Of a DNA stretch of 32,000 nt, positions 19,951 through 22,998 are shown piece after piece. Every line of letters begins with the position of its first letter. The first letter of the stretch is position 1. The translations under genes were made by a program, and so were the position numbers. The stretch comes from Ignicoccus pacificus DSM 13166. GTDB lineage: Archaea; Thermoproteota; Thermoprotei_A; Sulfolobales; Ignicoccaceae. The stretch covers positions 660,001 through 692,000 of the forward strand of contig CP006868.1 in the NCBI GenBank assembly GCA_025340205.1. Direction: 5' to 3'. The notes below the pieces were generated by a model, which had not been told where the DNA came from, made no database searches, and saw only the letters and a program-made list of their open reading frames with translations.

Positions 19951-20352
19951 ATGGTATGTCCGTTTGCTGTACAAAGAGGGCTACTGTCTAGGAGGGTCTT
20001 CTGCCTTGCCATAGGGATGTACGTTAACTACAAGAAACAAGGATGTTTGACTAACAAGTTCGTTGAATGTCCATACTACAAGCAAGCCATAGAAGAGGAA
20101 AAGAAGAAGGAAGAGGAGAGGATCATAGCACCTGATGCCCACGAAGTCCTAGAGGGAGAAAAAGACATACTAGAGAAAACCGTCAACGAAAGCGTCAAGG
20201 AAGCGCTAAAGAAGTACGCGGATCCAAAGAGAGGGATATACCCAGACACGTGTTACGACTGTCTTTACTTCTCTCCAACCACGGGGTTATGTCTGTATAT
20301 GAGAATAAAGGTAAAAGATCCAAACAATCCCCCTTGCAAGAGCAAGAAATGA
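19951..20352 (+). CDS. Cys-rich small protein, hypothetical
   Basis: 133 aa. There are four Cys in the first 40 aa and four in the last 33 aa (CYDC-x9-C-x14-C), separated by a highly charged linker (EEEKKKEEER). Its stop overlaps the next start as ATGA. Confidence 0.45.
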   Translation: MVCPFAVQRGLLSRRVFCLAIGMYVNYKKQGCLTNKFVECPYYKQAIEEEKKKEEERIIAPDAHEVLEGEKDILEKTVNESVKEALKKYADPKRGIYPDTCYDCLYFSPTTGLCLYMRIKVKDPNNPPCKSKK

Positions 20353-21116
20353 TAGTGGAGGGTTTCTTGCTTCTCTACAAGGACTTCATTTGGATGGCAA
20401 AGGGTATTGAACATCCAGAGGGCTATGCCGTAGCCTTCCCGCGCTATCACGGAGGTAAGAAGGTTTCTCTCTTCCCCACGCAATTTCTATCCCTCGTTAA
20501 GACTTGCGATTGTTCTCCTTCGCCCGTACCCTTAGTTCCTTTAGAGAGAGCCATAGTTTATGATCCGAGAGACTTAATAGAAAGGGACACGCTCGCAAGA
20601 GATTTCGCCTCTGTGTTAGCTAAGGGGGCCGGACTCACGGGATCTAGGGTAATAGGCGTAGAAGGCGACATAGACCTAGTCTTCTATGATAGTTATGAAG
20701 AAGTACTAAAAGCCCTAAAGGATCTTAGAGATGATGGGGAAATAGAACCGGAAATAGGGAAGTGGAAGAGTCTGGGCGAAGGAGCTATCAAATGTAAGCT
20801 CAAGCACACCCTTCTAGAAGGAAAGTGGAGAGGCGTTCACTACTCCATAAGACTCGTCTCGGCTCCTAGAGCTCCTTCAAGGCCCGTTTCCTTGGGTTTG
20901 AAGGCAGTTAAGGGAAGGATCATTGAAGCCAATAACACAGTAATGCCCTATGAATACGTATTGGAAAACGGAGTTATTATAGAGAGCTTGAGGATGCAAC
21001 ACTCCGAGATACCGGTGGGAGCGATAATAGAGGTGAAGGGATCGTGGGAGATGAGCTCGAGAGGAGAGAGACTCCACCTAGGGTTGAACTCATTCATGGA
21101 TGTGATCTCTTGCTAA
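20349..21116 (+). CDS. predicted Pol-beta-superfamily nucleotidyltransferase with a C-terminal beta-rich (OB-like) domain
   Basis: LTGSRVIGVEGDIDLVFY is an hGS-x7-DxD minimal NTase signature. The C-terminal about 70 aa (KGRIIEANNTVMPYEYVLENGVIIESLRM...IEVKGSWE) looks like an OB or barrel fold. I chose the ATG at 20349, which overlaps the upstream stop as ATGA, rather than the track start at 20250. Confidence 0.45.
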   Translation: MIVEGFLLLYKDFIWMAKGIEHPEGYAVAFPRYHGGKKVSLFPTQFLSLVKTCDCSPSPVPLVPLERAIVYDPRDLIERDTLARDFASVLAKGAGLTGSRVIGVEGDIDLVFYDSYEEVLKALKDLRDDGEIEPEIGKWKSLGEGAIKCKLKHTLLEGKWRGVHYSIRLVSAPRAPSRPVSLGLKAVKGRIIEANNTVMPYEYVLENGVIIESLRMQHSEIPVGAIIEVKGSWEMSSRGERLHLGLNSFMDVISC

Positions 21117-21856
21117 TAGCGGAGGCCTTAGAAGGAGCCTATCCCAAGGCAGGGAACGTGAGTCCCTTAAATGAAGGCCCGTTCAAGTACTTAGACCTAC
21201 TGGTTGAAGCGTGGAGACTTAAAAGAGTATGCGAGATGACCTTACCTCTGGGGAAGAGGTACTACACCTTCCTAACTTCACAAAGGGTAACTGCTCTAGC
21301 TGGCTTTGCGATACTCTCCATACCTCTCTTCGATTGCTTGAGTAGGGGTTTGAAGATGGGAAGATGTGGAAGGGATATTGTTAGGGGAAGCTCCCCTGAG
21401 GACGCCTACTGGTACCTCAAGGCGCTAAGGGATTCCGGTCTTTCTCATTTGAGGAGAGTTGAAGGAAGGGATTATCCTAATGTAGAGCGACCAGAAGAGG
21501 TCTTTGAGAAGGGCTGGAATTTAGAATACGTCTTTAAGAGAGTGGCCGATACCATCTCTTTGGAGATCATTAGAGGCTACCCCCTCTCCACGGAGGGGGC
21601 TCATTACCTTCTTGAGAATGGTATAGAAAGAATTAGGGAGCTCCAGCGAATTATCTTATCTAAGAGTATAGATGACCTAGTAGCGAGGAAGTGGGGCCTT
21701 CGAGTAGCTTATGAACTCACCTTAGCGGCTAGAGAAGGGCTTCATGAAAAATTCATTGAGGAGAAGGGGCTGAATCCTGGAACCACTGCTGACATAATCG
21801 GAGTCTCCGTTCTTATAGCCCTCTCCGAGCTTTTGAGAAGGAGGGAACTTTGGTAA
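21044..21856 (+). CDS. CitG/MdcB-like triphosphoribosyl-dephospho-CoA synthase family protein
   Basis: The N-terminal AYPKAGNVSP resembles CitG SPKPGLVD, and the C-terminal LNPGTTADIIGVSVLIAL resembles CitG LSPGGSADLL. Both occur in the expected order and spacing. The start is uncertain: the ATG at 21044 overlaps the upstream gene by 73 nt, and a TTG at 21110 overlaps it by 7 nt. Confidence 0.55.
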   Translation: MGDELERRETPPRVELIHGCDLLLIAEALEGAYPKAGNVSPLNEGPFKYLDLLVEAWRLKRVCEMTLPLGKRYYTFLTSQRVTALAGFAILSIPLFDCLSRGLKMGRCGRDIVRGSSPEDAYWYLKALRDSGLSHLRRVEGRDYPNVERPEEVFEKGWNLEYVFKRVADTISLEIIRGYPLSTEGAHYLLENGIERIRELQRIILSKSIDDLVARKWGLRVAYELTLAAREGLHEKFIEEKGLNPGTTADIIGVSVLIALSELLRRRELW

Positions 21857-22998
21857 TAGAGGTTAGCGAAGAAGCGCTTAGGAAGGCGTTAACCATCTCT
21901 CCGGTAATCTACCAGAAGCACGTCAAAGGGAGGGCAGAGATAGGTGAGCTGGTTGAGTTAGAGTATGAGGGAAGGACGATATGCGCTATGTGGGATGAAA
22001 CGGGGCCGGTGAGGTTAAGAGTGCTCCTTAACCACGAATGTCCGTCCACTCCCGAAGAAGCCCTAGAAGAAGCTCTAGAAAGGGCTTATAGGGTAAGAAG
22101 GCTTAACGGAGCCGCCAATTGGGATGCTTTCAGACTGGTCAATGGAGATGGAGATATGCTTTCAGGATTGATTATTGATATTTATAAGGAGATTGCTGTG
22201 CTCCAATCCTCAAGCTTAGCTATAGACAAGTATATCAAATTCATAGCTGAAAGAGTAAGGAATTTGCTAAAGCTGGAGTCCGTATATGAAAAGAGTGTTC
22301 AAAGGGTGAGGCGAAAGGTAGGACTACCAGAAAGGGAAGGCCTCATACTGGGAACGAAGAAAGAGACTGTGGTGGACGAGGAAGGAGTTAAGTTCTTGGT
22401 GAGGGTAGACAAGCAGAAGACGGGTCTTTACTTGGATCAAAGGGAGAACAGGGTATTCTTCGAGAGGTTCGCTAAAGGAGAGAAGGTCTTGGACGCGTTC
22501 TCCTATACCGGGGGATTTGGCCTTCACGCGTTGCACGGAGGGGCGAAGAAGGTGAAGTTTGTAGACGAGGATCACGAGGCTCTCTCGATACTAAAGGAGA
22601 ACTTAAGGCTTAACAGCTTCTCTGAAGAGATGGTAGAGATAGTCGAAAGCGATATATGGAGATACCTAAAAGAGGAGAGAAGTAGGTTCGGATTGCTGAG
22701 CTTCGATCCTCCAGCCTTCATTCCTTCAAAGGAGTATTACGACTTAGGAGTAAGAGATTACTTGAAGGTTTACATAAACGCGTTTAAGCTCGCTGAGGAG
22801 GGCTCCGTGGTCGTCCTCTCCTCGTGTTCCCAACCGCTCTCTAGGGACGATTTCTTGAGACTGATATCAAAGGCCTCCTTCTACGCCAAAGTGGACGCTA
22901 GGACGTTTGCTCTTCGTGGGGCCTCTCGTGATCACGTGATGCTTCCGAACGCTCGTCACTTGGAGTACTTGAAGGTGGCGTTCCTCTCAAGGCTTTGA
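21850..22998 (+). CDS. RlmI-like (PUA + class I SAM) RNA m5C methyltransferase family protein
   Basis: 382 aa. ...KTGLYLDQRENRVFFERFAKGEKVLDAFSYTGGFGLHA...FDPPAF... is the COG1092-type motif set. A TTG start overlaps the upstream stop by 7 nt. Confidence 0.75.
   Translation: MVIEVSEEALRKALTISPVIYQKHVKGRAEIGELVELEYEGRTICAMWDETGPVRLRVLLNHECPSTPEEALEEALERAYRVRRLNGAANWDAFRLVNGDGDMLSGLIIDIYKEIAVLQSSSLAIDKYIKFIAERVRNLLKLESVYEKSVQRVRRKVGLPEREGLILGTKKETVVDEEGVKFLVRVDKQKTGLYLDQRENRVFFERFAKGEKVLDAFSYTGGFGLHALHGGAKKVKFVDEDHEALSILKENLRLNSFSEEMVEIVESDIWRYLKEERSRFGLLSFDPPAFIPSKEYYDLGVRDYLKVYINAFKLAEEGSVVVLSSCSQPLSRDDFLRLISKASFYAKVDARTFALRGASRDHVMLPNARHLEYLKVAFLSRL

Follow-up and report, generated by a model that had tools for sequence, protein, structure and literature searches.

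CitG and MdcB (EC 2.4.2.52) create an alpha-glycosidic bond by transferring the ribosyl-triphosphate moiety of ATP to a hydroxyl group, with adenine as the leaving group; CitX and MdcG subsequently pass on the triphosphoribosyl adduct and release pyrophosphate. To our knowledge, this triphosphoribosyl chemistry has been described only for two acyl-carrier prosthetic groups. Methanopterin, which together with its relatives serves as the one-carbon carrier of methanogens, many other archaea and methylotrophic bacteria, contains an alpha-linked ribose 5-phosphate on its ribitol, and a phosphodiester joins this group to hydroxyglutarate. We know of no enzyme assigned to the attachment of either the alpha-ribosyl-5-phosphate or the terminal acid of this side chain. 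A limited literature search found no paper assigning an enzyme to ribosyl-phosphate or hydroxyglutarate attachment, and a limited search on CitG in archaea or in connection with methanopterin, and on COG1767, returned nothing directly relevant. Here, we analysed a four-gene operon of the non-methanogenic hyperthermophile Ignicoccus pacificus DSM 13166, in which a gene for a CitG-like protein (gene 3) adjoins a gene for a nucleotidyltransferase (NT; gene 2, designated NT1). The operon lies at 19951–22998 of the window, that is, the whole 32,000-nt stretch of DNA analysed (contig CP006868.1, positions 660,001–692,000, forward strand); coordinates below are positions in this window. We propose, with a probability of roughly 0.6, that the CitG-like protein and the nucleotidyltransferases NT1 and NT2 form an archaeal module that builds the ribosyl-phosphate tail of a methanopterin-like modified folate, and that genes 2 and 3, together with a distant NT2 paralog, are a local, strongly diverged copy of this widespread module.

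Gene 3 matched the Pfam CitG model PF01874 with 40.3 bits (cut-off, 27), residues 32–258 aligning with model positions 14–283. A six-frame search of the genome (a single contig of 1,685,057 bp, 99.9% complete) with the same model gave a match of 34.7 bits, at this locus only. Both CitG/MdcB landmarks pointed out in a preliminary description of the sequence were located, PKAGNV at residues 34–39 and NPGTTADI at residues 244–251, and the profile search placed the protein in the CitG family. Among 47 other archaeal CitG-like proteins, 35 columns show at least 80% conservation, and gene 3 kept 25 of them; the residues retained include E30, K35, G37, D120, D169, E174, D210, R215 and D250. Because all the conserved acidic and basic columns are retained, gene 3 looks functional, although fast-evolving, as judged from its sequence. 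It gave no match at E≤0.01 to the NCBIfam CitG/MdcB equivalogs (TIGR03125, TIGR03132, NF002315 and NF007503). A typical archaeal CitG-like relative (L035; in our labels, G denotes a sampled genome, G000 being I. pacificus, L a fetched locus, f a family and C1 the contig) scored 62 bits against an equivalog cut-off of 282.

The pair had been described as lying outside any citrate-lyase context, and the complete genome bore this out: no match was found to CitX (PF03802), the citrate-lyase acyl carrier protein CitD (PF06857) or CitF (PF04223), and the MdcG model (PF10620) gave only sub-threshold noise of 18.5 and 13.3 bits, away from the locus. Gene 3 therefore resembles CitG and MdcB in passing PF01874 and in keeping both motifs and the conserved acidic and basic residues, and it would share with them the use of ATP as ribosyl donor, the loss of adenine and an alpha-linked triphosphoribosyl product. 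It differs from them in reaching no equivalog model, in belonging to a genome without citrate lyase, malonate decarboxylase, acyl carrier protein, CitX or MdcG partners, and in its putative acceptor, a pterin-ribitol intermediate instead of dephospho-CoA. We regard it as a candidate for an ATP-dependent transferase that adds the triphosphoribosyl group to a pterin-aminophenyl-ribitol intermediate.

The nucleotidyltransferase signature and the OB-like C-terminus noted earlier for gene 2 were both supported. The motif G98-S99-x7-D107-I-D109 fits hG[GS] ... D-x-[DE], and all four of these residues were invariant in the gene 2 family alignment; across 35 NT1 and NT2 sequences the G and the two D residues were invariant, and the S nearly so. 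An AlphaFold (AF2) model of the whole protein had a predicted local distance difference test (pLDDT) score of 89.5, and a model of residues 1–178 built with the 35-sequence alignment reached 93.1. These models indicated an N-terminal beta domain (residues 1–72), a palm (78–176) and a C-terminal OB fold (178–255). Fold searches with the whole model returned OB-fold matches only, and we therefore modelled the palm alone. It aligned to Pol X, TdT, Pol beta/mu/lambda, TUTases, ANT(2''), LnuA, MenT and CCA-adding enzymes (VIA-align Z 6.5–4.4; best match Z 6.5, root-mean-square deviation (rmsd) 3.5 over 77 residues), and almost every one of the 38 top-ranked rows belonged to the Pol-beta-type superfamily, which places gene 2 inside the nucleotidyltransferase fold. 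The top Foldseek rows for the palm fell in the same superfamily with weak E values of 0.09–0.4. The OB fold gave matches at Z 8–8.7 and aligned to HIN and SSB domains (Z 8.7, 78 residues, rmsd 3.1, and Z 8.5, 72 residues, rmsd 2.0), and Foldseek gave the same OB fold class for the C-terminus.

Gene 2 itself matched no Pfam family at E≤0.01; PF01909 matched 22 of the 35 family members (best E 3.7e-7) and PF18765 matched nine (best E 1.3e-7). Against the PDB, the family profile weakly matched MntA (E 0.014) and Trf4 (E 0.047), in both cases at the motif, and a narrow gene 2 profile (A1) gave noise only (E≥1). When the narrow gene 2 alignment was used for an exhaustive profile search, 204 representative clusters were recovered; a broader NT alignment recovered over 1,300 clusters, defined at 90% identity and mostly from Bathyarchaeia and their relatives; the family members in the broad search were all named 'hypothetical' or 'predicted nucleotidyltransferase'. 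A related-locus search with A1 returned one locus, in a metagenome-assembled genome (MAG) of Desulfurococcales. Taken together, its sequence and models indicate that gene 2 is a member of an uncharacterised archaeal Pol-beta-type nucleotidyltransferase family. An ESM Atlas neighbour cluster was the sole sign of relatives in Methanobacteriota and is a lead only.

A tree of the NT family separated two old paralog clades, NT1 and NT2, both of which keep GS...DxD. NT1 includes gene 2 and, in many lineages, the gene that immediately follows the CitG-like gene; NT2 includes a second I. pacificus copy and the CitG-adjacent gene of Sulfolobaceae. The second copy lies just downstream of hypD, in otherwise uninformative surroundings (unknowns without a Pfam family and an Asp-dehydrogenase-like gene). 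Gene 2 is short for an NT1 protein, at 255 aa compared with about 340 aa elsewhere. At two loci of family f18 (L064 and L066), three NT paralogs stand beside the CitG-like gene, two of them forming deep, long branches of the tree. Gene 2 is like CitX and MdcG in being of nucleotidyltransferase type and encoded beside a CitG-type enzyme, and a triphosphate substrate and pyrophosphate release would be expected of it as well. It is not a member of either family: it matches neither PF03802 nor PF10620, genome-wide scans with these models placed no match at the locus, and it combines a beta domain, a minimal Pol-beta palm and an OB fold in a family with two paralogs. Its acceptor would be a small hydroxy compound instead of an acyl carrier protein serine, and we consider it a candidate phosphodiester-forming transferase of the cofactor tail.

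We then compared the gene neighbourhoods of CitG-like genes. About 14 kb around these genes was fetched in 50 genomes from about 30 families of the Thermoproteota, giving 51 loci, and all open reading frames (ORFs) were clustered. NT genes were by far the commonest neighbour (22 of the 51 loci), and the linkage is conserved well beyond this genome. The arrangements included CitG-NT1-NT2, DUF1464-NT2-CitG (Sulfolobaceae), NT2-NT1 without CitG, three NT genes with CitG, and NT1-CitG (I. pacificus). The order of the genes is thus shuffled between lineages, which argues for a functional rather than an inherited linkage.

The same observations bear on whether the genes are linked in function at all. 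Genes in small hyperthermophile genomes commonly overlap, the neighbours in the window are functionally heterogeneous, and gene 3 scores only 40 bits, as might be expected if the operon reflected nothing but compact packing and the CitG-like gene were a decaying remnant. We find this explanation extremely improbable, given that many families show the linkage, with the gene order varying among them, that the reading frame of gene 3 is intact and that four diverged genomes preserve 25 of the 35 conserved columns, all conserved acidic and basic residues among them.

The recurrent neighbours pointed to the pterin pathway. After the NT genes, they were DUF447 (8 loci), an ECF-S-component-like membrane protein (8), MptA (GTP cyclohydrolase, PF02649; 4), MptE (6-hydroxymethylpterin diphosphokinase, PF01973; 3), a nitroreductase and MobB. 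DUF447 heads the module operon in other lineages. The order DUF447-CitG-NT1(-NT2) was found beside MptA and/or MptE in five genomes (G088, G120, G248, G254 and G085; loci L034, L035, L038, L040 and L071), with MptA in G088, G120, G248 and G254 and MptE in G120, G248 and G085. In three further genomes (G145, G180 and G187) an NT gene directly adjoins, by coordinates, the gene for beta-ribofuranosylaminobenzene 5'-phosphate (beta-RFAP) synthase. The ECF-transporter S-component-like protein (PF12822, at threshold) stood next to the CitG-like gene at L037, L041, L060, L061, L064, L077, L078 and L082, and it may import a cofactor precursor. At three loci (L038:3497-4183, L040 and L081), an Mrr_cat/UPF0102 nuclease-like gene lies on the opposite strand between NT1 and NT2.

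We also surveyed co-occurrence with beta-RFAP synthase (TIGR00144 at E≤1e-20) in 301 Thermoproteota genomes. A CitG-like gene was present in 141 of them and the synthase in 108; both occurred in 103 and neither in 155, leaving 43 discordant, of which 38 had the CitG-like gene alone and five the synthase alone. The contrasts in presence and absence within families are the informative part of the survey. In family f21, the identical 12 of 18 genomes carried the CitG-like gene and the synthase, 11 of these also having an NT1-profile match, and in f25 the same single genome of 10 carried all three. In four families the CitG-like, NT and synthase genes were absent throughout (f8, 0/43; f12, 0/17; f14, 0/25; f17, 0/20). 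I. pacificus itself encodes a beta-RFAP synthase (C1:963972-964880; 216.1 bits against the TIGR00144 cut-off of 113.5).

Co-occurrence of this kind could also arise if the pair made some other small molecule, such as a ribosylated cofactor, a nucleotide-linked metabolite or a lipid head-group precursor, that merely accompanies methanopterin-type metabolism. Thirty-eight genomes have a CitG-like gene without a strong match to the synthase, the I. pacificus operon abuts an archaetidylinositol-phosphate synthase gene, and the nitroreductase, MobB and ECF-S-like protein are recurrent neighbours too. In addition, the control genome of Haloferax volcanii matched the CitG, beta-RFAP synthase and DUF447 models, despite the description of this organism as lacking methanopterin-specific enzymes (PMC8305020); either its genes serve another product, or the literature view needs revisiting. 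We nevertheless judge another small-molecule product to be unlikely. Operons shared with MptA and MptE, and NT genes directly beside that of beta-RFAP synthase, are contexts particular to the pterin pathway; the presence and absence of the CitG-like gene equals that of the synthase exactly within f21 and f25; and the proposed reactions are in keeping with the alpha-ribosyl-5-phosphate link known from methanopterin.

The preliminary description had suggested a macromolecular acceptor, either the cysteine-rich gene 1 product or an RNA shared with the methyltransferase encoded by gene 4. Gene 1 has cysteines at positions 3, 18, 32 and 40 and at 101, 104, 114 and 129, in agreement with the two 4-Cys clusters noted in this 133-aa protein (hereafter Cys8 protein), and all eight were kept in six of six full-length sequences aligned, the window copy included. 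It matched no Pfam or NCBIfam model, an ESM Atlas search gave no usable match, and its homologues formed 4 clusters among 5.8 billion proteins. The public gene call begins at M23, and residues 1–22 (19951–20016) hold two of the eight conserved cysteines. Because all eight are conserved, ATG 19951 is the likely start, with the N-terminal cluster coding; judged from this alignment, the public annotation is probably too short.

Gene 4 matched PF10672 (E 1.9e-18; 67 bits against 27), and its residues 3–380 aligned with positions 2–381 of NF053718 at 216 bits, below the cut-off of 575. It aligned end to end with 23S rRNA m5C1962 methyltransferase models, again below their cut-offs; we call the protein RlmI-like, as in the earlier description. 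At 22898–22998, the RlmI-like gene shares 101 nt with a convergent minus-strand gene for archaetidylinositol-phosphate synthase, and the same convergent overlap occurs in G118 and G177 (L042 and L043).

Genes 1 and 4 were linked to the pair only in I. pacificus, two congeners (G118 and G177) and one MAG (L088), which amounts for gene 4 to the f1 clade and L088, and their homologues were absent from the 47 other CitG-like neighbourhoods. They are not core parts of the module, and their sharing of the operon is limited to this small Desulfurococcales-like clade; gene 4 is probably an unrelated passenger. In the macromolecular reading, a phosphoribosyl-type group would be transferred either to the Cys8 protein, as a carrier or prosthetic-group acceptor, or to an RNA bound by the OB fold and shared with the RlmI-like enzyme. 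CitX and MdcG provide precedents that act on protein, the best matches of the OB fold of gene 2 are SSB, RPA and tRNA-synthetase anticodon-binding domains, and the translational coupling of all four genes is preserved in four genomes, at 32–63% identity. We consider such a reaction very unlikely all the same: gene 1 is almost without relatives, both genes are linked to the pair in one clade only, and the recurrent neighbours elsewhere are pterin-pathway genes. Moreover, entire families without beta-RFAP synthase (f8, f12, f14 and f17) lack the pair as well, a pattern that would not be expected if a conserved RNA were modified. The Cys-rich acceptor is thus not supported, its gene occurring with the pair in one small clade rather than across archaea, and neither is the RNA acceptor, since gene 4 is linked in this clade only and the pair tracks methanopterin-pathway genes.

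A related proposal confines the change to this clade, where the module would have been rewired to a macromolecule, with the OB-fold NT binding RNA or the Cys8 protein and adding to it, jointly with the CitG-like enzyme, a phosphoribosyl-type group, and with the RlmI-like enzyme sharing the target. This, too, appears highly improbable to us. In a milder version, the Cys8 protein may be a clade-specific metal-cluster partner that replaces DUF447, which is missing from I. pacificus.

The evidence favours a small-molecule intermediate of a pterin cofactor as the acceptor over a protein or an RNA. Of the earlier proposal, the two-step logic of a CitG-type enzyme followed by a transferase stands as a reasonable model, since both families were confirmed, the linkage of the pair is widely conserved and no citrate-lyase or malonate-decarboxylase genes explain it; the acceptors proposed with it found no support. 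In the first step of the scheme that we propose, the CitG-like enzyme would use ATP as ribosyl donor and release adenine, placing a 5-triphospho-alpha-D-ribosyl group on the terminal ribitol hydroxyl of a pterin-(4-aminophenyl)-ribitol intermediate. In the second, one or more NT enzymes would treat this triphosphate like an NTP, joining a hydroxyl acceptor at the alpha-phosphate and releasing pyrophosphate. In true methanopterin the acceptor would be (S)-2-hydroxyglutarate, and the product would be the ribose-5-phosphodiester tail; (S)-hydroxyglutaric acid is a methanopterin component (PMC5695019). NT1 and NT2 may form a heterodimer or may serve two different acceptors. The scheme would follow the CitG-then-CitX (MdcB-then-MdcG) logic, with a small molecule taking the place of the acyl carrier protein.

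Several points weigh against this scheme. Gene 3 is very divergent, with 40 bits compared with 140–260 in other lineages, and the equivalents of N83 and R41 are changed. The pair in this window adjoins no pterin gene, its neighbours being CcmC, the RlmI-like gene and the archaetidylinositol-phosphate synthase gene, and the I. pacificus genome contains no Pfam-detectable MptA, MptE or DUF447. The OB fold of gene 2 is closest to nucleic-acid-binding domains (SSB, RPA and tRNA-synthetase anticodon-binding). In 38 genomes a CitG-like gene occurs with no strong synthase match, and the co-occurrence counts overstate independence because the genomes are phylogenetically related.

Two systems outside this clade can be compared with the locus. 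The tetrahydromethanopterin (H4MPT) island of methanotrophs and methylotrophs has the order mch-orf5-orf7 (PMC3615186), and consecutive genes of Methylomonas are annotated as methenyl-H4MPT cyclohydrolase, alpha-L-glutamate ligase and 'triphosphoribosyl-dephospho-CoA synthase' (PMC11533326). As the island order matches this annotated trio, orf7 would be the CitG-like gene. Chistoserdova, Rasche and Lidstrom are said to have reported in 2005 that orf7 mutants are defective in dH4MPT synthesis. The likeness to our locus lies in a CitG-like gene within a methanopterin-linked one-carbon gene island. The differences are that the system is bacterial and that its product is dephospho-H4MPT, which lacks phosphate and hydroxyglutarate (PMC8141765); no NT step is therefore expected in methylotrophs. 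We also considered orf5/orfY of Methylobacterium as CitG-like/DUF447 genes and ruled them out, as they are the methylofuran (MYFR) glutamate ligases MyfB/MyfA (PMC8141765).

The second system is the operon of Sulfolobaceae. Sulfolobus has sulfopterin as its modified folate (PMC3697235), and its beta-RFAP synthase homologues belong, like the methanogen enzymes, to group 1 (PMC6787355). The Sulfolobaceae operon resembles that of I. pacificus in having the same CitG-like and NT families in overlapping genes and in belonging to a non-methanogenic crenarchaeon that uses a modified folate. In Sulfolobaceae, however, NT2 adjoins the CitG-like gene and NT1 lies elsewhere, whereas in I. pacificus NT1 adjoins it and NT2 lies elsewhere. 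The Sulfolobaceae loci (L053–L055) contain DUF1464 (ASKHA-like), NT2, the CitG-like gene and a protein of about 166 aa without a Pfam match. In I. pacificus the pair is flanked by the Cys8 and RlmI-like genes instead, and the homologues of DUF1464 and the small protein are scattered (C1:724671-725225 and C1:710454-710978, about 33–45 kb beyond gene 3).

The four plus-strand ORFs overlap at every junction when read from the sequence (Table 1), just as first described. Gene 2 starts with the ATG at 20349 and gene 1 stops with the TGA at 20350–20352, the two forming an ATGA at 20349–20352. Gene 2 ends with a TAA at 21114–21116, overlapping gene 3 by 73 nt if the latter starts at GTG 21044 (270 aa) or by 7 nt if it starts at the in-frame TTG 21110 (248 aa); the shorter start is favoured because the G177 homologue lacks the first ~26 residues. 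Gene 3 ends with a TAA at 21854–21856, and gene 4 starts at TTG 21850, a 7-nt overlap. The same four-gene order with overlapping junctions was found in the three further genomes of the clade, at 32–63% identity. Within the window, the surroundings of the pair comprise genes for PIN, CcmC, the Cys8 protein, the RlmI-like enzyme and archaetidylinositol-phosphate (AIP) synthase.

Table 1. Positions of the four operon genes in the window and of the second NT copy in the I. pacificus genome (HMM, hidden Markov model; m5C, 5-methylcytosine).
Feature	Position	Strand	Remarks
Gene 1, Cys8 protein, 133 aa	19951..20352	+	clade-specific, co-operonic, outside the widespread module
Gene 2, NT1 nucleotidyltransferase, 255 aa	20349..21116	+	Pol-beta-type palm and OB fold
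Gene 3, divergent CitG-like protein, 270 or 248 aa	21044 (or 21110)..21856	+	PF01874
Gene 4, RlmI-like RNA m5C methyltransferase, 382 aa	21850..22998	+	PF10672, NF053718
NT2 paralog, 292 aa	G000:C1:1223801-1224679 (L086:7801-8676)		iterated family HMM, E 5e-62

The pairing of a CitG-like enzyme with a dedicated nucleotidyltransferase provides a concrete hypothesis, testable in vitro, for the tail steps of methanopterin synthesis. The window adds to the family a minimal, highly diverged and fast-evolving copy of the module from a non-methanogenic hyperthermophile, distinguished by a short NT1, an operon headed by a clade-specific Cys8 gene, and the lack of DUF447. This copy helps to separate the core (CitG-like protein, NT1 and NT2) from lineage-specific parts (DUF447, DUF1464 and the Cys8 protein). 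If the proposed role is true, triphosphoribosyl chemistry would have been reused for a small-molecule cofactor.

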